From assembly GCA_018167975.1 (NCBI GenBank), contig GCA_018167975.1_4333.1: 42,822 bases of DNA; one strand, 5' to 3'. Positions 1,001 through 40,685 of the stretch are shown here, piece after piece (the first letter of the stretch is position 1; each line of letters begins with the position of its first letter). The notes beneath the pieces are model-generated. The model searched no databases, had not been told where the DNA came from, and saw nothing but the letters and a program-made list of their open reading frames with translations. Source of the stretch: a phage. The position numbers and the translations under genes were made by a program.

Positions 1001-1301
1001 CTGTGCCTCCTCGACGTGCGATGTATTCTCCGGCGACGATACCAGAGAGACGGGAATAGATAGGCATCCAGAGAATAGCGATAATGAAGCCGAGGCCAGC
1101 GATTTCACGGTCGCCCGTGATTCCAAACCATTGAGCGGCAAGAGGTGCGCCAAATACAGCGCAAGTGAAGCCAGTTGCGATAAAGCAGAATCCGTCGATA
1201 GGGCCGGAAATAGCGGACTTATGTTGCCTTAGCCCGATTACCCCTCCGGCTAGCGCGGCAGCGAGAAGCCAGCCTGTCACTGTTTCAGTAAATTTATCCA
1301 A
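993..1301 (-). CDS. Holin-like membrane protein (3 predicted TM helices)
   Basis: TTG start at 1301 with GGAGG RBS 7 nt upstream; three hydrophobic segments (WLLAAALAGGVIGL, GFCFIATGFTCAVFGAPLAA, IAGLGFIIAILWMPIY); first gene of the lysis cassette. Confidence 0.55.
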   Translation of the reverse strand: MDKFTETVTGWLLAAALAGGVIGLRQHKSAISGPIDGFCFIATGFTCAVFGAPLAAQWFGITGDREIAGLGFIIAILWMPIYSRLSGIVAGEYIARRGGTDE

Positions 1302-1360
1302 GATGAATCCTCCAGGTGCGTATTAAGTATGCAGTAACTGGAGGATACCACGGCTAGGAA

Positions 1361-1801
1361 TTATCCTAATAGTTGTTTGGTAATAATCTTGCCACCGGTG
1401 TTAGTGTCGAACTTCGAGGCAACAGCTACGCCACCATGTGCCGAATACCCGCATTCCATAGCCGCTAATGCATAAGGAGAACCGGAACCAACGGCGGCAA
1501 AGCTATCGGCAACTGGAATAACCGAACTAAGTGCACAATCCCATGATTTATAAAATGCGACTTTATACACCTTTTCTGTGTCTTTCACGAACACCAGGGC
1601 TTCGAAATCGAAGTCGTAGTGCTGTGGCCAAAGAATATCGGGACGATCGATAAGCATAGTCCCTACCCCAGCATCACCAGCCACCCCGATAACGGCAAAA
1701 TTATTCTCATATATCTTTGTGTCTGTGTTGTAACAGTTGCTCCCGCACACAACACGGGTGTCACAAGCCATTGTCTTTCCGTCAAACGCGATAGTAGTCA
1801 T
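1361..1801 (-). CDS. HslV-like Ntn-hydrolase (proteasome-type threonine peptidase homolog)
   Basis: N-terminus MTTIAF (Thr directly after Met, as in HslV MTTIVSV) and AVGSGSPYALAA matching the HslV GSGGPYAQAA signature; GGAG RBS 8 nt upstream of the ATG at 1801. Confidence 0.55.
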   Translation of the reverse strand: MTTIAFDGKTMACDTRVVCGSNCYNTDTKIYENNFAVIGVAGDAGVGTMLIDRPDILWPQHYDFDFEALVFVKDTEKVYKVAFYKSWDCALSSVIPVADSFAAVGSGSPYALAAMECGYSAHGGVAVASKFDTNTGGKIITKQLLG

Positions 1802-2090
1802 TTATGTCTCCAGATGTATTGTCGTCTCTGCGGTTTCGTCGGAATATCTTCATACCCAGCGATTTCCAGTAATTAAATAACCGATTAGCAATAGCCGCCC
1901 GTTCCTTTGTCTTGAACTCGCCGAGGTTCACGGCCTTCCCGTTCTGGAATCCACAGGCGCGGACAGCCTTGCGTCTGGCCTGAATCTCGGTGTACAGCGC
2001 ATTACGGCGGCGCTTGTATATCTGTGTTTTAGCTCTCGGCGACAGCGGCGCAAGGCCGCTTCGTTTCAGGATGTCAGTTGCAAGAGTCAT
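1782..2090 (-). CDS. Hypothetical basic protein
   Basis: ATG at 2088-2090 with GGGGTGA RBS; Arg/Lys-rich 102-aa product; no recognisable motif. Confidence 0.5.
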   Translation of the reverse strand: MTLATDILKRSGLAPLSPRAKTQIYKRRRNALYTEIQARRKAVRACGFQNGKAVNLGEFKTKERAAIANRLFNYWKSLGMKIFRRNRRDDNTSGDINDYYRV

Positions 2091-2096
2091 TTTACA

Positions 2097-2552
2097 TCAC
2101 CCCACAACCCGGTACGCAATAATGTCATAATCTCGTTCGCCGTTACATAACCACCAGCGATAAATACACGAATCGTCCTTATATGCGATGGTACCGTCGC
2201 GGAATTTAACATCGACAAGCCTCCCCGGAACAGGGTTTTCACCTCCGGGCCATACTGTCCACGCAGACTCCTTCCCGTTATGTTCCACCCCTTCCACATG
2301 TGTAATTGACCCGCGGTTCGCGCACTCGACGTAATCCGGGAACTGGTCTTTGTATTTCTGTAACTCGGCTTTTACTTCTGCCAGTCTCGCCACGAGTCCC
2401 TCGATTTCCATGTCCGTAGTGGTTATGTAGTCCTGGAAATCGTCATCCAGTTCCTTGTAATCTCCATAACGCACCCAGTCACCGTCTGCGTCTTTCTCTA
2501 AGTCAATATGCCCCGTAACACAGTCTTCTTTTAAATCGTATCTCTGTACCAT
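2097..2552 (-). CDS. Hypothetical protein
   Basis: ORF 2097..2558; ATG at 2550-2552 preceded by AGGAGAA at 9-nt spacing; acidic N-terminal half. Confidence 0.5.
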   Translation of the reverse strand: MVQRYDLKEDCVTGHIDLEKDADGDWVRYGDYKELDDDFQDYITTTDMEIEGLVARLAEVKAELQKYKDQFPDYVECANRGSITHVEGVEHNGKESAWTVWPGGENPVPGRLVDVKFRDGTIAYKDDSCIYRWWLCNGERDYDIIAYRVVG

Positions 2553-2554
2553 AA

Positions 2555-2758
2555 TCACTTCTCCTGTTTACCAAGTCGCTTAGGTGAGCAGATAGCGCGT
2601 ACCTCTGAATCGTTGGGCTTGTCGCCCTGAAACAGGAAGTGCGCGTTCTCTGCGGCGCGTGCCGCTGACTGGCACGCCTCCATCGAGTAAAACGTTTCTG
2701 ATGCCGCGAGTTGCATCTGACCCGCGGACAGTACCCAGATAAATAAGATGCTGGTCAT
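2555..2758 (-). CDS. Small putative secreted protein (N-terminal signal-peptide-like segment, 3 Cys)
   Basis: ATG at 2756-2758 overlapping the upstream stop (ATGA); MTSILFIWVLSAGQMQLAASE resembles a signal peptide; stop overlaps the next start. Confidence 0.4.
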   Translation of the reverse strand: MTSILFIWVLSAGQMQLAASETFYSMEACQSAARAAENAHFLFQGDKPNDSEVRAICSPKRLGKQEK

Positions 2759-3219
2759 AAGTTTATTACCCCGCGTTTGGCGCAACGCCTGTACTCTTCT
2801 CCGTTAGGATAATAATAATCCCACTCGTGTTTGCATTTCTGCGTATCGTTTTTAGGTTTATATTCCTTGTCGTCCCACTCACGCGCACCCCATTCACAGC
2901 AAAACCGACTACCAGGCACGTTATCCTTGTGGCCTTCCGCAATAAACAATCCGGGAGCGATAATCCAATTGTGGTCGCATTCCTGAACGTCTTCTTTACG
3001 GCAACCGGATTGCTCCTGTTTGCGTAGAACTTTGTAAGCCTCAACGTCCCCGTTCATTAACGTTATAGTCCCCATCAACTCGTCAACCACCTCTGACACA
3101 TCACGTAACTGATTCTTAAGTGACTGCACCTCGTGCGCCAGGTCTTCGCACTGGTTGCTATTTACCTGCTGCCGTAACTGGTCAATCAGGTACTCGAATA
3201 CTTCGTTTTTAGTGTTCAT
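2755..3219 (-). CDS. Hypothetical protein with coiled-coil N-terminus and Cys/His-rich C-terminal domain (possible zinc binding)
   Basis: ATG at 3217-3219; C-terminal half has CRKEDVQECDH...FCCEW...CKHEW...RRC pattern. Confidence 0.5.
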   Translation of the reverse strand: MNTKNEVFEYLIDQLRQQVNSNQCEDLAHEVQSLKNQLRDVSEVVDELMGTITLMNGDVEAYKVLRKQEQSGCRKEDVQECDHNWIIAPGLFIAEGHKDNVPGSRFCCEWGAREWDDKEYKPKNDTQKCKHEWDYYYPNGEEYRRCAKRGVINL

Positions 3220-3337
3220 ATTCTTCGCTCACTCCGTTATAGACGCCGTTGTAATCCCCGTCGCAGATGAACGGGCAGAGCATATCTTCGTACTCGTCCT
3301 GCAACTCACCTAAAGTCACTTCGCTATAATCTTTCAT
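3209..3337 (-). CDS. Small hypothetical protein (42 aa, acidic)
   Basis: Below the ORF-track length cutoff; ATG at 3335-3337 preceded by GAGAGGAGAGA RBS; stop overlaps the start of the 2755..3219 gene; first gene downstream of the promoter at 3369-3397. Confidence 0.35.
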   Translation of the reverse strand: MKDYSEVTLGELQDEYEDMLCPFICDGDYNGVYNGVSEEYEH

Positions 3338-3368
3338 CTTTTGTCTCTCCTCTCGTTTGTGTAAATGA

Positions 3369-3397
3369 ATAGTAGCCTATTCTATCTTAGCGTGCAA
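3369..3397 (-). promoter_or_regulatory. Sigma70-like promoter (minus strand): -35 TTGCAC, 17-bp spacer, -10 TACTAT, with AATAG-N4-CTATT palindrome in the spacer
   Basis: rc of 3392-3397 = TTGCAC; rc of 3369-3374 = TACTAT; spacer 17 nt; same design as the promoters at 4831, 26106, 35159 and 37018. Confidence 0.5.
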
Positions 3398-3557
3398 GTA
3401 AATTTTATTGGTGTTTGTATTGTTGCATCTCCTGCAATAGTCGCTTCGATTGTTGCGTTTGGTGAAATAGAACAAAAATGAGAAAAATGATACGCTGCTG
3501 TGTAGCAGCGTAAGTCACAAAGCCAAATAGTAACCTATTGACCTGTTACACCACCTG

Positions 3558-5756: not shown

Positions 5757-8027
5757 ATGTCCGATGTAATTTTATCCTACTCGTGGTCTCGTCGCAACGC
5801 GCGGGCAGAGAAAAAGGATATAAACGTCAGAACAACACACACGGCAACACTGGACAACCTGAAAGAGTTAATCCAGCCGCTCGATGCCGTTCGTGACGGA
5901 ATTAACCCGAAGACCGCGCCGGGCTATATCACTGCCGCGTGCGATTCTACGCACAGCACCGTAAAAGACCCGGAAACCGGTGACTTTAAGCAAGCGCGTA
6001 AAGGCTTCTTCTATCGCTGTGATGCGTCTGTAAGCAAATCGTCGCTGGCGTACCTGGACTTCGACAGTGCAACGCCGGAAGAGTATCAGGAAGCGGTGCG
6101 CCTGGTTAAGCGCAGCCGCCGGGCGATGTGCCTCTACACCACGGCATCTCATACCGATGAGTCTCCACGCTTTCGCGTCGTCATGCCACTGGGCCGTCCT
6201 GTTGAAGGTGGTGACATCATCCGCATTCGTCATGGATTGCTGGAGCACTTCTTCGAAGGCATGGGTGCTGACCGCAGCGGGTTCACTCTGTCCCAGCCGA
6301 TGTACCTGCCGCCGGTTGGCTCTCAGGTTATCTGGTCGCGTCGCAATGACCTGATTGACCCGGACGAGTTACTGGAAGGCATCCCGGATTACGAGGTGAG
6401 CAGCGCGTCTGACTACCAGATACCGGAAGAACTGCGCACCTCGTTCACGGATGCGTTCGAAGCACTGGCGTTCGAGTACGGTGGCATCATGACGCCGCGT
6501 GGCCTTAAGATACCAGCTACGCCAGAACACGCAGAGAACTACAGCGACCCGACCCCGCGCCCGGACGACTTCCTGCTGTGTTTCCCGCGCGAGGGGTATG
6601 AAGCGCCGAACGTAACCATGATTCACGACACCGACATTACGGCAACAGAAGGCATGTCACCGAAAGAGGTGTGGAAGTATGCGTGTGATGCGACCGGTCT
6701 GCCGTTCAGTGAGGTCGCTGAGGCTATTGGCTGGGGCGCACGTGAATCTATTTCATGCAGTCTCGATGACCTGGAGGACGACGAGGACTCAGAGGTGGAC
6801 GAGTTACCTGAACCGGTAAAGGCTGATTTCGTCGTCGAGGGGTACATGCCGTCAGATTGTATCTGGGATATCGTCGGGGAATCCGGCACGTACAAATCAT
6901 TCTATACGCTGGGGATGATGTACCTTAGCGCCGCCGGATACCGGTTCGCGGGGGCCGATACCCAGCGTTGCCACCATTTCTATGTCGACGGTGAGGGTGG
7001 CGCTGCTACACGTACCCGTATTGATGCGCTCGCGGCTAAATATGGCGAGGAAGGTAAAGATTATGTACATGTCATTGATATGGGCGAAGTCGGAAAACTG
7101 AAAAACCTGATTAAGCTAATGCGCGAAACTGCGGGCGATGAACCAATCGGCATGGTTGCGTTCGACACCCTTAACCAGACGCTGGCCCTGACGATTGATA
7201 AGTTCGACGAGAACAGTTCATCAACGGCAATCGGTATGGGTAAAGTTATCGCCATCCTGAAAGAAGTACGCGACGCGACTAAAGCCGCGGTAGGCGTTGT
7301 GCACCACACACCGAAAGGCGGAAAGAAAGCCCGAGGTAGCGGCGCTCTGTATGCAGGCGTAGACGTTGAACTGACAATTGAACGTGCCACCGAACGTCAG
7401 ATAAACGTATACCACTCTAAATTTAAGCACGGGCCTCAACAGAAAACGGTTGGCATGGTGTTGGAGTCAGTACAGTTCCGCGAAGCCCCGCCACCGAAAG
7501 AGTACCGCGCGGTTGAGTTCCTCGGTAGCACAGAGGAATACGGCACAATCGTAAACCTCGACCTGCCGGAACCGCACAAGGCGCTTGTGCTGATGCCGTG
7601 GGGCTTCGAACCGTTCAAAACTGACGAGGAGAAAGAGCGGGAAGAAGGGCTGACAAAGGAAGGTAAAGCGGCCATTAAAGAAAAGGTAGGTCAGTTCGAG
7701 AAACTTGATACCAAAGAAGCTACGGTTATTTACGCATTGGGTAAATTGCAGGAGCAGGGTGACGACAAGCGAGGGTTTTCTATGTCAGCTATCGTCAAAG
7801 CCGCGAAAGAAGATAGTTACGGCGTACCAATTAACGCTAATAACGACCTTCGAAAGAAACTGGAAGAGATGCACGAGGCTGGGGTTATCGTCTCGGGTCT
7901 GGATAACAACAACAGACCTATCCCTAAGCAGTACCGGTTGCCGTGGGGTATAAACGACAACAAAATACCGAAGACAATATACGAACCGAATGAGATGTTA
8001 ACAGTGACAGAGGAGGATTTGGAATGA
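5757..8027 (+). CDS. Replication primase-helicase (primase-like N-terminal domain fused to a RecA-like/AAA_25 ATPase domain)
   Basis: 756 aa; N-terminal region with LAYLDFD...CLYTTASHTDESPRFRVVMPLG (prim-pol-like); C-terminal region with GESGTYKS (P-loop-like), VAFDTLNQ and VVHHTPKGG segments typical of RepA/DnaB-type RecA folds; GAAGGAAA RBS. Confidence 0.6.
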   Translation: MSDVILSYSWSRRNARAEKKDINVRTTHTATLDNLKELIQPLDAVRDGINPKTAPGYITAACDSTHSTVKDPETGDFKQARKGFFYRCDASVSKSSLAYLDFDSATPEEYQEAVRLVKRSRRAMCLYTTASHTDESPRFRVVMPLGRPVEGGDIIRIRHGLLEHFFEGMGADRSGFTLSQPMYLPPVGSQVIWSRRNDLIDPDELLEGIPDYEVSSASDYQIPEELRTSFTDAFEALAFEYGGIMTPRGLKIPATPEHAENYSDPTPRPDDFLLCFPREGYEAPNVTMIHDTDITATEGMSPKEVWKYACDATGLPFSEVAEAIGWGARESISCSLDDLEDDEDSEVDELPEPVKADFVVEGYMPSDCIWDIVGESGTYKSFYTLGMMYLSAAGYRFAGADTQRCHHFYVDGEGGAATRTRIDALAAKYGEEGKDYVHVIDMGEVGKLKNLIKLMRETAGDEPIGMVAFDTLNQTLALTIDKFDENSSSTAIGMGKVIAILKEVRDATKAAVGVVHHTPKGGKKARGSGALYAGVDVELTIERATERQINVYHSKFKHGPQQKTVGMVLESVQFREAPPPKEYRAVEFLGSTEEYGTIVNLDLPEPHKALVLMPWGFEPFKTDEEKEREEGLTKEGKAAIKEKVGQFEKLDTKEATVIYALGKLQEQGDDKRGFSMSAIVKAAKEDSYGVPINANNDLRKKLEEMHEAGVIVSGLDNNNRPIPKQYRLPWGINDNKIPKTIYEPNEMLTVTEEDLE

Positions 8028-8338
8028 ATATCTACGATTTTATAGATAACCCGTTTAAGGCAGTGAAGGCAGGATACCGCCCGTCATACCTGACATGTGT
8101 TTCCGCGGTAAGCGGCCACTGGTGGACTTTTTGGGTTTACACGGCGGGGATTTTTGCGGAGTTTAAAGACATTTTAGATATGACGCTGGCGGAGATTATA
8201 AAGTGCCTTTTCAAGTTGATTATCGCGATAGCTATTGTAATAAGTTTTCCTGTAAGTGTGTGGTTTCTGGCCTGGATTCAGTACCTGAACGTGCAACACA
8301 CGGTTAAGAATTTGGAAGAACTCGATAAGTTGAAATAA
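8024..8338 (+). CDS. Hypothetical membrane protein
   Basis: ATGA overlap with the primase-helicase stop; hydrophobic segments HWWTFWVYTAGIFA and LIIAIAIVISFPVSVWFLAWI. Confidence 0.5.
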   Translation: MNIYDFIDNPFKAVKAGYRPSYLTCVSAVSGHWWTFWVYTAGIFAEFKDILDMTLAEIIKCLFKLIIAIAIVISFPVSVWFLAWIQYLNVQHTVKNLEELDKLK

Positions 8339-10768: not shown

Positions 10769-10923
10769 TTCGTAAAATTAAATATTGGGGGCTGGTTTCC
10801 CCTTTTATCGTAATAGGCGCGTTTACTTCGTCTATCGCGTGGGTAGACCGTAAACTTAGCGACAGTGAAACAATCGAGCGTTATTTTCTTTGGTGTGAGA
10901 AAGTTTCTAAAATTAAGCGTTGA
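10765..10923 (+). CDS. Small membrane protein (52 aa, 1 TM)
   Basis: ATGA overlap with the nuclease stop; GGAGG RBS embedded in the upstream coding sequence; hydrophobic WGLVSPFIVIGAFTSSIAW. Confidence 0.4.
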   Translation: MIRKIKYWGLVSPFIVIGAFTSSIAWVDRKLSDSETIERYFLWCEKVSKIKR

Positions 10924-10948
10924 CACCTGAATAGTTAGCTATTATAGT
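10920..10948 (+). promoter_or_regulatory. Sigma70-like promoter: -35 TTGACA, 17-bp spacer, -10 TATAGT, palindrome AATAGTTAGCTATT in spacer
   Basis: TTGACA 10920-10925, TATAGT 10943-10948; upstream of the SSB-like gene. Confidence 0.6.
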
Positions 10949-11006: not shown

Positions 11007-11633
11007 ATGGGTATTAAACTGAATCTGCGTAAAGTAAACACTGCATGGGTTAACGTATTCGAACGCGAAAAAGACCGTGAAAACGATGATGGCTCAATCA
11101 CTAAAGGTCAGTACAGCGCGACTATCATCCTGCCGTCTGACCACGCTCAAATAGACGCGCTTTACGACACTGTTTATGCTGTAGTTGAAGAAGCGTTGGG
11201 TGCAGCCGCTGCCGAGAAGTGGATGAAGTCCAACTACGGCGAAGGTAAGCACATGGATAAATGCGCGATTAAAGACATTGCCGAGCGCGACAATCCATTT
11301 GAAGACTTCCCGGAAGGCTTCTACTTCAAAGCGAAAGCGCAGAAACAGCCGCTGATTGTAACCTCTAAAAAAGGTGAGACTCAGGTGGAGCAGGACTTCA
11401 ATGTAGACGGAGAACAGATTGAAGGTGAACAGGTTTACAGCGGCTGCGTGGCCAACGTAAGCGTCGAAATCTGGTTTAGCCAGAAATACAAAGTCCTCGG
11501 CGTTAACCTGCTGGCCATTAAATACGTCGGCGAAGGTAAAGCGTTCGGTGGTTCTAAAGTCGCCGCAAGTGTCGATGACCTGGAAGACGACGAAGAAGAT
11601 GAAGCACCGCGCCGCGAACGTCGCCGTCGTTAA
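11007..11633 (+). CDS. Putative single-stranded DNA-binding protein (T7 gp2.5-like architecture, acidic C-terminal tail)
   Basis: 208 aa; C-terminal GVNLLAIKYVGEGKAFGGS followed by acidic DDLEDDEEDE tail, reminiscent of gp2.5-type SSBs; own promoter and terminator. Confidence 0.5.
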   Translation: MGIKLNLRKVNTAWVNVFEREKDRENDDGSITKGQYSATIILPSDHAQIDALYDTVYAVVEEALGAAAAEKWMKSNYGEGKHMDKCAIKDIAERDNPFEDFPEGFYFKAKAQKQPLIVTSKKGETQVEQDFNVDGEQIEGEQVYSGCVANVSVEIWFSQKYKVLGVNLLAIKYVGEGKAFGGSKVAASVDDLEDDEEDEAPRRERRRR

Positions 11634-11652
11634 TATCTGAATCAATTTAACT

Positions 11653-11677
11653 AAGGCCCTTCATTGGGCCTTTTTAC
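11653..11677 (+). terminator. Rho-independent terminator
   Basis: Stem AGGCCC (11654-11659) / GGGCCT (11666-11671), loop TTCATT, followed by TTTTT. Confidence 0.6.
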
Positions 11678-11687
11678 CGGAGTCAGA

Positions 11688-12161
11688 ATGGAACATATAA
11701 AAGATTTTCTTAGCTATAACCGAGAAACCGGAATATTCACATGGATACAACCTACGTACAGACGAGGGAAACCTGGAGACATTGCGGGATGCATTAATAG
11801 TAGCGGATACTGGCGCATACCTTATATGGGTAGATATTACATGGCCCACAGGCTTGCTTGGTTTTTCGAGTACGGTGAATGGCCTGAGGGGCCGCTTGAC
11901 CACATAAACCGTGACAGGTTAGACAATAGGATTTCTAACCTAAGGAAAGCAACCACCGCAGATAATGTGCGAAACGCTAAAAATAAGGGAGCTAGAACGG
12001 GAGTTAAGGGAGTAGTTAAAACCGGCAACCGATTTTATGGGCGGGTACATTTTAACTACAAAAGTTATAATGCGGGTAGCTACGGAACTCTTGAAGAAGC
12101 AGAAAGCGCTGTAAAGAAATTAAGAGAAAAACTGCATAAGGAATTTTATTGCCATGACTAG
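11688..12161 (+). CDS. HNH homing endonuclease (HNH_3 catalytic motif plus AP2-like DNA-binding domain)
   Basis: ORF 11664..12161; ATG at 11688 with GGAG RBS; AHRLAWFFEYGEWPEGPLDHINRDRLDNRISNLR (HNH) and GVKGVVKTGNRFYGRV...GTLEEAESA (AP2-like). Confidence 0.75.
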   Translation: MEHIKDFLSYNRETGIFTWIQPTYRRGKPGDIAGCINSSGYWRIPYMGRYYMAHRLAWFFEYGEWPEGPLDHINRDRLDNRISNLRKATTADNVRNAKNKGARTGVKGVVKTGNRFYGRVHFNYKSYNAGSYGTLEEAESAVKKLREKLHKEFYCHD

Positions 12162-14424
12162 TTTATTATACCTGGATACCGAGACATTCTCCGAAGCAGA
12201 CTTAAAGAAAGTCGGGTCGTATGCGTATGCGGAGCACCCAACGACAGAGGTTATAATTTGTACATATGCCGTTGATGACGGCCCTGTAGAAGTATGGGAT
12301 TGCACTTCCGAACCAGTAATGCCAATAAGCCTCCGCGTAGCGCTCCGTAATGTTATGCGTGGACGTATGAAAATCGTGGGCCATAACTTTTTAATGTTCG
12401 ATCGTCTAATCCTGAAACACTGCTGGGACTTTGATATCCCGGTAAGCAACACCATTGATACGATGATTTGGGCGTTTCGTCACGCGCTGCCAGGGTCACT
12501 TGATGCGCTGTGTGAAGTGCTTGGCGTGTCCGCTGATAATGCGAAAGACAAACGCGGCAAGGCGCTGATTCAGCGTTTCTCTAAACCGACACCGAAGAAC
12601 TATAAAATCCGCCGCTACACCGCCGAAACGCACCCGGACGAATGGGCGCTGTTCATCAAGTACGCCGTGAGCGACATCACAGCGATGCGTGAAGTCTTCC
12701 ATAAGCTGCCACGTTGGGGTAACTCCGATTTCGAGGACCGTGTACTTGAACTTGACCAGTTAATCAACGACCGAGGCTTTTTTGTTGATGCAGCTCTTGC
12801 TGAGGCAGCGGTAGCGGCAGTTGAACGCCACAAGCAAGAGCTAAAAAACGAGGCCCGCGCGAAATTCGGGGGGAAACTAACGGGCAAAGACTTCCTGCCA
12901 ATCCTTCGGGAGCTGGCACCGGCCTACAATATCTATAATGCGCAGAAAGCGACGCTCGAAGGTTTGTTAGAGGACGACGACTTGCCCGACGATGCGCGTA
13001 CAATCATTGAGATGCGCCTCGGCGCGGCCTCCACGGCGTCAACAAAATATAAGCCGCTCCTGTTAGGACGGTCCAAAGACGGACGACGCCGTGGTTGCAT
13101 CCAGTATGGCGGCGCGAAGCGCACTTTACGGTTTGCGGGTAAAGGGTTCCAGCCGCAGAACCTGTCGCGCGGGTACTACCACGACGACCCGACTAACGAG
13201 GAAAAGAAACTTGTACGCCAGCCGTGGGAGTCCGACGAAGACTGGAACCGCAGGCTTAACCCGCTATCATTTGGCATCAATTTGCTTTTAAAGGGTCGGG
13301 CGCATCGCCGTTTCGATGTATCTAAGCTGACAGCTTCAACTGTTCGCAGCTGCATCATCCCTGAAAAGGGTAATAAGTTGCTCGTTGCCGACTACTCAAA
13401 CGTGGAAGGGCGCGGGTTGGCCTGGGCCGCCGGGGAGACATCCGCGCTTGAGACCTTCCGAGCAGGGATTGATATCTATTGCGCCACCGCGGGCAAGATG
13501 TTTGGCATGGACCCCGTAGAGCTAAAAGCCACCCGTAAGGACCTACGTCAGGTCGGGAAATGTTGCGAACTCGGCCTCGGCTACGAGGGGGGCGTAGGGG
13601 CCTTTATGACTATGGCTAAAACTTACGGGCTGGACCTCTTTAAAATGACGGAGACAATGCGGGGCACGTTCCCTGATCACATTTGGGCGGCTACTGCCAG
13701 GGGCTATGAATGGGCGCGGATTCAGGAGGCTAAGAGACCCCCGAAACCCGGTAAAAAGGATGAACGGGCCTCTTATGTGCTGCCTAAAGAAGTCTGGCGC
13801 ACCTGCGATGCTATCAAGCGCATGTGGCGTGAGGCCCATCCAGAAACAGTGAAATTCTGGAACGACCTTAAGGATTCGGTAATTGCCGCAATCAGAAATC
13901 CGGGACGAGAGTTTTGGGCGGGGGCCAGAGTCCGCCTTAACGGCGACAGAGCTATTCGCATCTGGCGTACTAAAGAGAAAGATAGTCAGGGTAGATTTGT
14001 GCCGGGTTGGTGGTTGTGTGTAGAACTGCCGTCAGGGCGCGTCATGTCGTACCCCGGCATAGGTCTGAGCGTTACTAAAGAAACTGACGAGGATGGGCGC
14101 GTAACAACTAACGTTCGCATTAAGTACCAGGGCGAAAACCAGACCACCCGCCAGTGGACAACTTTGTACACACACGGCGGAAAATTGTGTGAAAACATCA
14201 TCCAGGCGTTGTGCCGTGATTTACTGGTTAACGGACTCCTGACGGTCGAGGCGGCGGGCTACCCAATTGTACTCCACGTACATGACGAATGTGTTGCCGA
14301 AACGCCAGACACGCCAGAGTACACGGTTAAAGAGATGGGTGACCTGCTATGCTCATTACCCGAATGGGCCGAAGGGTTCCCGTTAACATGGGCTGGGGAA
14401 GAGGTGTACCGTTATGCTAAGTAA
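12154..14424 (+). CDS. DNA polymerase, family A (Pol I-like) with 3'-5' exonuclease domain
   Basis: 756 aa; exo motifs YLDTETFS, HNFLMFD, YAVSDITAM; polymerase motifs DYSNVEGRGLAW (A), RKDLRQVGKCCELGLGYEGG (B), VLHVHDECV (C). Confidence 0.85.
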   Translation: MTSLLYLDTETFSEADLKKVGSYAYAEHPTTEVIICTYAVDDGPVEVWDCTSEPVMPISLRVALRNVMRGRMKIVGHNFLMFDRLILKHCWDFDIPVSNTIDTMIWAFRHALPGSLDALCEVLGVSADNAKDKRGKALIQRFSKPTPKNYKIRRYTAETHPDEWALFIKYAVSDITAMREVFHKLPRWGNSDFEDRVLELDQLINDRGFFVDAALAEAAVAAVERHKQELKNEARAKFGGKLTGKDFLPILRELAPAYNIYNAQKATLEGLLEDDDLPDDARTIIEMRLGAASTASTKYKPLLLGRSKDGRRRGCIQYGGAKRTLRFAGKGFQPQNLSRGYYHDDPTNEEKKLVRQPWESDEDWNRRLNPLSFGINLLLKGRAHRRFDVSKLTASTVRSCIIPEKGNKLLVADYSNVEGRGLAWAAGETSALETFRAGIDIYCATAGKMFGMDPVELKATRKDLRQVGKCCELGLGYEGGVGAFMTMAKTYGLDLFKMTETMRGTFPDHIWAATARGYEWARIQEAKRPPKPGKKDERASYVLPKEVWRTCDAIKRMWREAHPETVKFWNDLKDSVIAAIRNPGREFWAGARVRLNGDRAIRIWRTKEKDSQGRFVPGWWLCVELPSGRVMSYPGIGLSVTKETDEDGRVTTNVRIKYQGENQTTRQWTTLYTHGGKLCENIIQALCRDLLVNGLLTVEAAGYPIVLHVHDECVAETPDTPEYTVKEMGDLLCSLPEWAEGFPLTWAGEEVYRYAK

Positions 14425-15092: not shown

Positions 15093-15347
15093 ATGGCTAT
15101 CGAACTTCAACTGTCGGTAAACACCATGATTATGGGCTCAATCGATTCATCTGTTCGCATCGGTAAATACACGGGTGCGTCGGTCAATTACTCATGGTCT
15201 ATGAAGGTTTCGGAAGTAAACCGTATTCTCGGTTTCGGGTCAGTTGGTCGCAAGGTGCTTGCGGAAGACGTCGCTAAAGGGCTGTCTGTAGATTTCACAA
15301 CGGCTGGAGAACTTATTAAGCAAGTTCAAGCCGAATTATCTAACTAA
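15093..15347 (+). CDS. Hypothetical protein
   Basis: ATG with AAGGAA RBS; 84 aa. Confidence 0.5.
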   Translation: MAIELQLSVNTMIMGSIDSSVRIGKYTGASVNYSWSMKVSEVNRILGFGSVGRKVLAEDVAKGLSVDFTTAGELIKQVQAELSN

Positions 15348-15349
15348 TA

Positions 15350-15372
15350 CAGGCCCTTCGGGGCCTTAACTA
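15350..15372 (+). terminator. Hairpin (weak terminator/attenuator or RNA-stability element)
   Basis: AGGCCC-TTCG-GGGCCT at 15351-15366 followed by TAACTAT (poor U-tract). Confidence 0.3.
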
Positions 15373-15386
15373 TAAGGAATTGAGAA

Positions 15387-15578
15387 ATGAAACACGAATA
15401 TGACCGCAAGCCAGCACGTGACATCGTACCGGGCGACATGATTTTCAACGTTAAGACACGCCAACCTGTCGCCGTTGATACGGTGTTCGTAGAGTCGAAC
15501 GGTAAACTGGTTATCGAAGACGTAACAGGTAACGTTACGGCGTTCGGGCGTAAAGAGCTGGTTCTGGTGGCAAAATGA
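15387..15578 (+). CDS. Hypothetical protein
   Basis: ATG at 15387 with AAGGAA RBS; 63 aa. Confidence 0.5.
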   Translation: MKHEYDRKPARDIVPGDMIFNVKTRQPVAVDTVFVESNGKLVIEDVTGNVTAFGRKELVLVAK

Positions 15579-38827: not shown

Positions 38828-40078
38828 TTAAAGTGCGAAAGTCACCGGGATGTTGATTACTGGTTTAACCACCGGCATCTCGTAAACTACAGGATAGCCG
38901 AGAGCATCCGCCATATGGTCGATGATGCCGTCTTTGGACGGCTCCCCGTTATCGTCGTAAGCCTGCTGCTCCAGCGTCTTGGCTATCTCAGGGCATAAGT
39001 GGTCGTTAACCCACAGCTTACCTTTTTCCAGCGCTGTATTCACGGCCAAAACACGGTCTTTAACCGGGGGGTTGGCAGATTTAGCGCGAACATCGAACCC
39101 GGCCTGCTGGAGTAACGCAATATCAGAGATTGACGCCGAGTTGGTTTTGCGGTTCTTGCCGCTTGCGTCAGGGTAAACGACGATGCGGTGACCTTGCGAC
39201 TTCCACTTCTCGGTAATTACGCGCACGGTGTCCGGCGTATCGAACAGGCCTTTCAGTTCTGCCACCGCGTGCCAGCCGTCTTTACGCTGCACATACACGG
39301 CGCTGGCGTTCTTCGTAACGTTGAAGTCCTGCCCGATGTACAGCGTGTCGCCAGGTTGAATTGTCTCTTTGCTGCGGTGCTTACGGCGGTCGTACGCGTA
39401 ATACACGCTGCCGGATGTCAGGTTGACGAACTCACCGTTCAGATATGCGTTAATCAACTGCGCCGGGTAAGTCTCTGTCAGCGAGCTAATGTAATCCGGC
39501 GGCAGGAATCGCGCGTTCTCATGAGTTGATGCCTGCACCATCGAGTAGCTCGGCGTCGGATTCTCTTTGAACTTGGCGTAGACGAACTTGAACCCTTCCG
39601 GCGTCGTGGTTACAGAGATGTGGTTGGTTACGCCAGGAATAACAAGACGCATACGGGCTACGATTTTGTTCCACGCCAGCTCGGCTTTCTCGCGGCTCAG
39701 TACATCTAGCTCATCCACGACCGCAGCGGCGATTTTGAAACCCACAATCGAACCAGGGTTATCCATCGAACGGCAGATAACGGTCCCGAGCACAGTCTTA
39801 CCGCGAGTAACCACGACTTCTTTGTCGCCGGATTTAACCAGCACATCGAGGCCTAGCAGGTTAGCCGCTTCCTCAAATGTCGGGTAGAAGATGTCACGAA
39901 TAGCTGGGTATGTTGGGCCGAAGTAGCCCAGGCGCGTACCTGGATGCTTGAGCATAAACGTAAGCAGGTCAAGGCAGCCTACGAATGTCTTTCCGCTGCC
40001 GAAGCCCCCGACATAGGCTTTGTACTTGTTATCGCAATTCAGGAACAGTGCCTGTGGTGCGGATAGCTGAATACTCAT
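38828..40078 (-). CDS. Terminase large subunit
   Basis: Walker A VGGFGSGKT, Walker B AAVVDELD, C-terminal nuclease region; 416 aa. Confidence 0.9.
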   Translation of the reverse strand: MSIQLSAPQALFLNCDNKYKAYVGGFGSGKTFVGCLDLLTFMLKHPGTRLGYFGPTYPAIRDIFYPTFEEAANLLGLDVLVKSGDKEVVVTRGKTVLGTVICRSMDNPGSIVGFKIAAAVVDELDVLSREKAELAWNKIVARMRLVIPGVTNHISVTTTPEGFKFVYAKFKENPTPSYSMVQASTHENARFLPPDYISSLTETYPAQLINAYLNGEFVNLTSGSVYYAYDRRKHRSKETIQPGDTLYIGQDFNVTKNASAVYVQRKDGWHAVAELKGLFDTPDTVRVITEKWKSQGHRIVVYPDASGKNRKTNSASISDIALLQQAGFDVRAKSANPPVKDRVLAVNTALEKGKLWVNDHLCPEIAKTLEQQAYDDNGEPSKDGIIDHMADALGYPVVYEMPVVKPVINIPVTFAL

Positions 40079-40620
40079 TCCTCTACCTCGCCCATGTTCG
40101 TTGTTACAATTTTACCTACAGGCTCTGCGACACTGAAAACAATCTCGGTCGGTGCTGTTTCTTCGGCGGATTCGACCGGTTTCTCTTTGTTGAGGCCCAG
40201 CTTAGCGGCAGCAAACGTGGCCGAGATACCCGCAGCCCCTGTCTCAGTGAAGTATGCCTCTTCAAGCGCCTGTGCGGTCTCCCAGGCTTCCGCAAATGCG
40301 GGAATCTCACGCAGCCACAGCTTAATAATCGGGATAGTGACGCCGATGTGTAAGGCAAAGCGAGCCAGAGACGGGGGTTTATCCTGAATCAACGGGCGTT
40401 CGTCACCCTTAGACGTAGGCACAAGCTCCCATGACGTGCGGTCGAAGAACTCGATTAACGCGTCGCAATAGTCCGGGTCCCACAACGCGGCGGAATTACG
40501 GGATGATTGATAAAGGCTCTGTTTACCGCGCGGTCGTTTACGGCGACGGTTTGCGCTAACAGCTTCTTCATGCGCAGCTTGCACCACCTCTGGCGATGGC
40601 TGCTTGAGTTTCAGCTTCAT
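40075..40620 (-). CDS. Terminase small subunit
   Basis: ORF 40075..40659; ATG at 40618-40620 with AAGGGGA RBS; overlaps the TerL start; basic N-terminus. Confidence 0.55.
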   Translation of the reverse strand: MKLKLKQPSPEVVQAAHEEAVSANRRRKRPRGKQSLYQSSRNSAALWDPDYCDALIEFFDRTSWELVPTSKGDERPLIQDKPPSLARFALHIGVTIPIIKLWLREIPAFAEAWETAQALEEAYFTETGAAGISATFAAAKLGLNKEKPVESAEETAPTEIVFSVAEPVGKIVTTNMGEVEE

Positions 40621-40685
40621 AGAATCCCCTTGCATATGCGTCTGACCATCAGAGCGCACCAGACGCGCCCTACGCGCCTAAAGGG

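Follow-up and report, generated by a model that had tools for sequence, protein, structure and literature searches.

A putative homing endonuclease gene of the HNH-AP2 class occupies the slot between the SSB and DNA polymerase genes of a Kagunavirus genome, beside a distinct polymerase 5′ tract

A small open reading frame (ORF) precedes the DNA polymerase gene in a Kagunavirus-type coliphage. Is it a mobile homing endonuclease gene, or a resident accessory of the replication module? The window, meaning the whole stretch of 42,822 nt analyzed here, is a Kagunavirus (Guernseyvirinae) genome, and the HNH gene under study derives from such a coliphage. The region shares 83–93% identity with siphophages of E. 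coli and Salmonella from the Guernseyvirinae genera Kagunavirus and Jerseyvirus. Its replication module is collinear with those of the relatives, in the order helicase-primase, exonuclease, single-stranded DNA-binding protein (SSB), DNA polymerase (pol), VRR-NUC, and helicase. The ORF lies on the plus strand at 11688–12161 and encodes 157 amino acids plus a stop codon (ATG at 11688, TAG at 12159–12161). An earlier note, made from the DNA letters alone, had described it as wedged between an SSB-like gene and the polymerase gene, and both neighbors were identified as such. The left flank is a gene for a Gp2.5/Enc34-type ssDNA-binding and annealing protein (208 aa; 11007–11633, plus strand; Pfam Enc34_ssDNA-bd, E=8e-16; phrog_112, E=2.1e-42), and the right flank is a family-A DNA polymerase gene (756 aa; 12154–14424, plus strand; Pfam DNA_pol_A; phrog_17). 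A strong, near-consensus sigma-70-like promoter (TTGACA-17-TATAGT, 11 of 12 matches) is located upstream of the SSB gene at 10920–10948, the same position as the annotated promoter of phage Jersey.

The HNH ORF is preceded by the leader CGGAGTCAGA (11678–11687, plus strand), which is insert-specific and present in all HNH-positive loci. The leader contains the ribosome-binding site (RBS) GGAG at 11679–11682, ending 5 nt 5′ of the ATG, and an alternative TTG start at 11664 falls inside the upstream terminator-like hairpin. The stop codon was also said to overlap the polymerase start; this overlap is real and comprises 8 nt (ATGACTAG, 12154–12161, plus strand), with the pol ATG at 12154 and the end of the HNH TAG at 12161. 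The start codon and the first two codons of pol are accordingly supplied by the insert. This stop/start architecture is common to all HNH-positive relatives, and the version in Cornellvirus W5 reads ATGGCTAA. The GC content of the gene is 42.6%, versus 50.6% for the window, which places it in the lowest 2% of equal-sized windows; its composition is foreign. Searches of the window with tblastn and a family HMM detected no HNH-family paralog elsewhere, and the gene is the sole family member there.

The protein contains an HNH_3 catalytic core at residues 51–95 (11838–11972, plus strand). The Pfam HNH_3 model matches over its full length (positions 1–46 of 46) with E=2.3e-15 and 56.4 bits, against a cut-off of 24.8, and the PHROG profile phrog_99, "HNH endonuclease", matches the ORF with E=1.7e-58. 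The motifs by which the core had been called a textbook example are both present, HRLAW at residues 54–58 and DHINRDRLDNRISNL at residues 71–85, and the description holds. The core residues are His54, Asp71, His72, Asn80, and Asn84, with Asn93 and Asn96 in or just past the following helix. Across 66 homologs, His54, Asp71, His72, Asn80, Arg81, Asn84, Leu85, Arg86, and Asn96 are invariant, and Asn93 is nearly so; the HNH core is identical in all seven close copies. The catalytic His and Asn residues, the loss of which would have counted against an active nuclease, are thus intact and invariant. With regard to the beta-beta-alpha-metal fold, the AlphaFold model places strands at residues 70–72 and 85–87, followed by a helix at residues 90–95, with pLDDT values above 90. 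A Foldseek search with the whole model yielded only a weak best match (E=6e-3), with no HNH structure ranked and 1u3e not within the top 50, and from this search only the AP2 superposition is informative.

The C-terminal region is predicted to form an AP2/ERF-like DNA-binding domain of three strands and a helix at residues ~106–153 (12003–12146, plus strand), on the combined basis of profile, fold, and homologs. The Pfam AP2 model itself gave no direct match to the HNH protein, even at E≤10 with the C-terminal fragment. Collinear full-length homologs with 35–48% identity carry PF00847 and PF13392, the Pfam AP2 and HNH_3 domains. Furthermore, a family profile built from 66 family members matches the AP2 domains of WRI1 (E=5.9e-9) and TEM1 (E=3.6e-5), as well as the HNH part of I-HmuI (1u3e; E=1e-7). 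In the AlphaFold model (pLDDT 92.3), the three strands and the helix span residues 109–153, and Foldseek superposes this domain on the AP2 domains of TEM1 and AtERF1 with 0.9 Å rmsd and a probability of 1.00. The AP2-like domain proposed in the earlier note is therefore upheld by the Pfam domains of the homologs, the family profile, and the predicted fold, with Pfam AP2 silent on the protein itself. Among the seven close copies, dN/dS ranges from 0.01 to 0.07, with dS of up to 0.49. Together with the invariant catalytic residues, these values indicate that the protein is functional and under strong purifying selection.

A comparison of the SSB–pol region across relatives, which had been suggested as a check on the mobility of the gene, revealed its presence in six of about 160 related GenBank phage records, always in this slot. 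These records are EM1, vB_VIPECOTPH05A, vB_VIPECOMC04, vB-Eco-KMB36, fBC-Eco01, and P AB-2017, and their copies are 92–97.5% identical to the window copy in nucleotides and 97.5–100% in protein. A tblastn search returned only these six near-identical copies, each upstream of pol. Among 35 IMG/VR contigs with the conserved terminator, three carry the gene, again in the same slot. It is missing from more than 90% of the close relatives, in which the slot is empty or occupied by another ORF; about 129 HNH-less phage records match 11634–11677 at ~100% and then diverge. K1G, GZMU_E2010, and phiSD1 have an empty slot, with the pol start 59 nt past the SSB stop. In 36 records, including SZH-1 and Bas75, the slot is filled by a Cys/His-rich ORF of 52 aa, MMFFCKHVYRYMKPLPWYADEYRAGYRHVWICRDCMKIRLSETKALDLRKKK, whose stop overlaps the pol ATG (6260–6415 in both L011, from SZH-1, and L013, from Bas75; the same slot as 11678–12153 of the window). 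This ORF is broken by a TAG in phage Jersey and has no significant Pfam match (best zf-MYST, E=0.26). An unrelated 92-aa ORF occupies the slot in ~14 records (L015, from Golestan, 6260–6538) and has 67–75% nucleotide matches in Klebsiella and Serratia phages. Since the HNH gene and the 52-aa and 92-aa ORFs share one slot, the slot is a multi-cargo hotspot.

The SSB gene is followed by a terminator-like hairpin and U-run at 11653–11677 (plus strand), with a 7-bp stem (AAGGCCC/GGGCCUU). The fBC-Eco01 record annotates a terminator at this position. The hairpin was missed by a consensus scan for terminators, and folding of the 61-nt stretch 11640–11700 gave a minimum free energy of −13.4 kcal/mol with a z-score of −1.33, which is not better than shuffled sequence. 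Position 11677, the last base of the hairpin, is also the left edge of the homology with HNH-less relatives. The junctions were read base by base directly and not from automatic alignment; the left junction is exact between 11677 and 11678, directly past ...GGGCCTTTTTAC. Every empty allele has TAAGGGTC(A/G)AAAATAAT at the position of the leader, in place of CGGAGTCAGA. Two kinds of empty site are distinguished by what follows the TTTTTAC at the junction: the type-A site, as in K1G, continues with TAAGGGTCAAAAATAATG, and the type-B site continues with TAAGGGTCGAAAATAATATGCCTAAT, giving the junction sequence ...TTTTTACTAAGGGTCGAAAATAATATGCCTAATTTATTATACCTGGATAC... for the latter. The type-B empty alleles come from four IMG/VR contigs (L021, L023, L029/L024, and L056), which read ...TTTTTAC and then TAAGGGTCGAAAATAATATGCCTAATTTATTATACCTGG across the junction, with pol beginning MPNLLYLDTETFS. 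Against the type-B empty site, the insert proper is 11678–12161 (484 nt) and replaces 26 nt. It brings a new RBS, the HNH ORF, and the pol start with two codons, and the polymerase begins with MTS..., versus MPN... in the empty allele.

The difference between HNH-positive and HNH-less genomes extends beyond the insert into a "type B" 5′ tract of pol at 12162–12392 (plus strand), which runs through codon 80, includes the ExoI DxE motif LDTETF, and is marked by HNH-exclusive alignment columns. Diagnostic sites were determined by comparing seven HNH-positive sequences with six HNH-less isolates. All 65 alignment columns exclusive to the HNH-positive group fall within 12158–12392, the first 239 nt of pol, and none is found in pol nucleotides 240–1500 or in the 2200 nt upstream of the insert. 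In 100-nt windows, the identity between the two groups is 0.49–0.76 inside the tract and ~0.92 past it. At the protein level, residues 1–85 of the window polymerase are 99–100% identical to those of HNH-positive phages and 67–70% identical to those of HNH-less phages. Among 50,697 phage records, the tract occurs at ≥94% identity only in the six HNH-positive records, and the next-best match covers 60% of it at 80% identity. The two N-termini are also distinguished by their signatures, LDTETFS without a Pro-Asn insertion in type B and LDFETFS in type A.

The association between gene and tract is one-sided. The HNH gene accompanies type B in the window, in 6/6 GenBank records, and in 3/3 IMG/VR contigs, and it accompanies type A in none of 26 IMG/VR contigs and none of the seven type-A GenBank loci examined; it resides only beside a type-B pol 5′ tract. 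Conversely, type B exists without the HNH gene in four IMG/VR contigs, and the tract is therefore not exclusively a hitch-hiker of the gene. The idea that the type-B tract is a pure HNH hitch-hiker was rejected on these four alleles. A separate Kagunavirus-like IMG/VR contig (L051, pol at 1196–3448, minus strand) carries a third, HNH-less pol N-terminus (MQDLLFKDTETFSEADLKKVGAYRYSEDPST...), so that at least three discrete classes of allele are known for the first ~85 pol codons.

Residues 86–400 of the window polymerase are 99% identical to those of the HNH-less phage SZH-1 and 87–88% identical to those of the HNH-positive phages. Similarly, the region 12800–14400 shows values of 0.87–1.00 against SZH-1, GZMU_E2010, and L023, and 0.45–0.8 against all other relatives, whether HNH-positive or not; a segment of ~100 nt at 13180–13300 occurs only in the SZH-1 type. 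The window polymerase is thus composed of a type-B N-terminus and an SZH-1/GZMU-type body, whereas the other HNH-positive phages have a K1G-type body. Therefore, the HNH gene and the type-B tract form a module found on at least two bodies, and the pol body is dimorphic independently of the HNH gene. Just past the tract, at 12400–12459, all HNH-positive alleles are type-A-like (0.82–0.87), while the type-B empty alleles are divergent (0.65–0.73). The tract ends at the same point, 12392, in all HNH-positive genomes and gives way to A-like sequence; the HNH-positive alleles are therefore B(1–239)/A(240–) recombinants. As read from these alignments, the mosaic structure demonstrates that the module has recombined between backgrounds, a statement that covers the recombination itself, whichever way it ran and whether or not the nuclease took part. 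The single shared right boundary could reflect one ancestral recombination followed by descent instead of repeated homing.

Considering these results together, we assign a probability of roughly 75% to the reading that this ORF encodes a functional homing endonuclease of the HNH_3 + AP2 class, carried as a free-standing gene between the SSB terminator and the pol start. The mobile, free-standing homing endonuclease claimed in the earlier note is supported by the single-slot polymorphism, the exact left junction, the linked flanking haplotype, and the mosaic backgrounds. The gene is present or absent at one defined slot, with identifiable empty sites of types A and B, and its distribution is discordant with the relationships of the flanking pol, as the window body is that of the HNH-less SZH-1. 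Universal presence at this position with no trace of mobility, which would argue against homing, is not what the relatives show, given the polymorphism of the slot, the exact junction on the left, and the mosaicism around it.

We envisage the following mechanism. In a mixed infection, the AP2 domain and the N-terminal region would bind a specific sequence of the HNH-less genome, at or near the SSB–pol junction or in the pol 5′ region, and the HNH domain would nick or cut the HNH-less allele there. Recombinational repair from the HNH-positive genome would then copy the HNH gene, and with it the neighboring 5′ tract of pol when the recipient is type A, in the manner of intronless homing with co-conversion. 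The HNH-positive allele would be spared from cutting because its site is interrupted or diverged. Cutting may fall either on the empty junction of type-B alleles or on the pol tract of type-A alleles. In the latter case, the candidate region is 12306–12392, where the diagnostic differences are densest and include a 6-nt indel. More tentatively, and with the odds against it, the endonuclease might cut the type-A pol of co-infecting Kagunaviruses within codons 1–80 near the ExoI motif and install the type-B tract, rather than simply homing into the type-B empty site. If this were true, the enzyme would be a weapon in inter-phage competition, one that keeps discrete A/B/C classes of the pol 5′ region across the genus. 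A role in marker exclusion is plausible.

The age of this association differs from what had been supposed. Homologs with 64–72% identity on ~40-kb metagenomic phage contigs lie in the same slot between SSB and pol and overlap the pol start, and a homolog in Cornellvirus W5 with 43% identity is located likewise. All these homologs, at 43–72% identity, show the terminator–RBS–ORF–overlap architecture observed in the window. The occurrence of such distant homologs in the same slot therefore points to a long association of this HNH lineage with the pol 5′ end. A recent insertion, as the earlier note had it, is not supported by dS values of up to 0.49, a closest copy at 97.5% nucleotide identity, and slot homologs of 43–72% identity in distant phages. 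The similarity of dS to that of the backbone and the same-slot homologs in other genera would also fit long vertical residence.

These observations lend some weight to an explanation in which the gene encodes a lineage-specific accessory nuclease that is not, or never was, homing, that descends vertically with the type-B pol, and whose patchy distribution results from ordinary recombination or cassette replacement. Beyond the backbone-like dS among copies (up to 0.49) and the homologs at 43–72% identity in the same slot of other genera, this explanation would account for the one right boundary at 12392 in all HNH-positive alleles. It also agrees with a polymerase that is mosaic independently of HNH, with two bodies and the third N-terminal type in L051, and with the unrelated small ORFs that also occupy the slot. 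However, strong purifying selection on a complete nuclease and DNA-binding architecture needs a selected activity, and more than 90% of the relatives do without the gene. Moreover, the gene never lies beside a type-A pol despite free recombination elsewhere, and the module is joined to two distinct polymerase bodies. We consider this explanation unlikely, though it is the strongest competitor of the homing reading in probability. The expression of pol raises another alternative. No promoter-like site was found between the terminator-like hairpin (11653–11677) and pol, and therefore the HNH gene and pol probably depend on read-through. The placement of pol would allow its translation to be coupled to that of the HNH gene, as it is to the small ORFs in other alleles. 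The HNH-AP2 protein could thus conceivably be domesticated and not selfish, binding the pol 5′ region through AP2 or coupling pol translation. The pol start codon inside the HNH ORF, the lack of a promoter-like site between the SSB terminator and pol, the conservation of the overlap across genera, and the strength of purifying selection are all compatible with such a role. In the empty alleles, however, this terminator is followed immediately by a pol gene that has an RBS of its own, and in other alleles pol is coupled to unrelated small ORFs; pol expression therefore does not require HNH. A pure binder would also have no need for the conserved catalytic residues Asp71, His72, Asn80, Asn84, and Asn96, and we regard domestication as very improbable.

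The least probable of the explanations, to the point of being negligible, is that the protein is a packaging-associated HNH endonuclease that, like HK97 gp74, helps the terminase to cut concatemers; the earlier note had raised a possible packaging role. HNH proteins of this general superfamily assist packaging in some cos phages, and tblastn finds HNH genes with ~43% identity beside the terminase genes of some Salmonella phages. In the window, however, the genes for the small and large terminase subunits (38828–40659) lie on the opposite strand ~27 kb from the HNH gene, which sits in the replication module, and more than 90% of close relatives package their DNA without it. The adjacency to terminase or portal genes and the group-wide conservation by which HK97 gp74-like packaging proteins are recognized are absent from the window gene. 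A packaging HNH of this kind was ruled out by position and dispensability.

The homing reading places the gene among known systems. An HNH-AP2 class of homing endonucleases in phages, cyanobacteria, and protists was described by Magnani et al. 2004, as cited in PMC10448857, and such genes often adjoin DNA polymerase genes and lie at the boundaries of exchanged segments (Barth et al., PMC10448857), which is the pattern found in the window. The predicted protein resembles this class in its N-terminal HNH and C-terminal AP2 domains, its free-standing gene, and its location beside a DNA polymerase gene, a frequent site for the class. It differs in that its AP2 domain falls below Pfam detection, and it is a predicted member known from sequence. 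Within the same class, IPA-HNH of ICP1 belongs to a divergent group that is too divergent for the Pfam model, whereas the window protein has a canonical HNH_3 core. I-HmuI of Bacillus phage SPO1 (PDB 1U3E) has the same HNH_3-type His-Me finger core by sequence profile, with a match of the family profile to its residues 33–110 (E=1e-7); the D-H...N...N catalytic pattern is conserved in the window family. I-HmuI is encoded in a group I intron of a DNA polymerase gene and is a strand-specific nickase with C-terminal DNA-binding modules other than AP2. In contrast, the window gene is free-standing, located upstream of pol, and encodes a predicted AP2-like domain.

In its genomic arrangement, the locus is comparable to those of SegF, SegG, and MobE of phage T4, which are likewise free-standing genes between essential replication genes with a linked, diverged stretch of the neighboring gene; the flank is asymmetric and sharply bounded in the same way. 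SegF and SegG are GIY-YIG enzymes, and MobE is an HNH enzyme without AP2. For the T4 enzymes, cleavage sites and biased inheritance have been measured, whereas the properties of the window enzyme are deduced from its sequence. Free-standing homing endonucleases of T4 reportedly act in intronless homing and marker exclusion, as Belle is said to have set out in 2002. Intronless homing or marker exclusion with co-conversion in T4 was described by Liu et al. 2003, as cited in PMC10448857.

The six GenBank orthologs (EM1 gp66, fBC-Eco01_045, P AB-2017 P_57, the KMB36 copy, VIPECOMC04_00035, and VIPECOTPH05A_00035) are already annotated as "HNH endonuclease" or "HNH homing endonuclease". These Kagunavirus proteins share 97.5–100% identity with the window protein, the same slot, and the same pol overlap, and the window copy differs from them in being placed on another pol body, of the SZH-1/GZMU type. 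No publication on this enzyme in Kagunavirus came up in the literature searches. The gene is an ordinary example of a described class and not a new kind of system. Its significance is accordingly modest, as a clean natural example of an HNH-AP2 gene with a base-exact insert and two kinds of empty site. With a linked tract that lies in an essential gene and has a sharp edge, assays of cleavage and co-conversion could be planned with little effort in Kagunavirus, a small and tractable genus of coliphages that is now represented in the BASEL collection (PMC11990801). The locus also carries a warning for annotation, as the first 80 pol codons travel with the endonuclease gene.

Three other segments of the window, 8000–8300, 10800–10900, and 15100–15400, are absent from, or rarely matched in, the 12 relatives used for comparison. 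An ORF at 8024–8338 (104 aa; phrog_2638, function not assigned) matches none of the 12, the stretch 10800–10900 has no counterpart in them, and an ORF at 15093–15347 (84 aa) is common only to SZH-1 and phiSD1 among them. Further phrog_99 HNH genes, with no counterpart in the window, are scattered over the replication modules of the relatives L005, L007, L008, L009, and L014, in slots that precede the exonuclease, VRR-NUC, and helicase genes or follow pol. Finally, the pol gene of KMB36 measures 3096 nt, compared with ~2200 nt, and the helicase gene of vB_VIPECOTPH05A is longer than 2.4 kb, which suggests that both contain inteins or other insertions.
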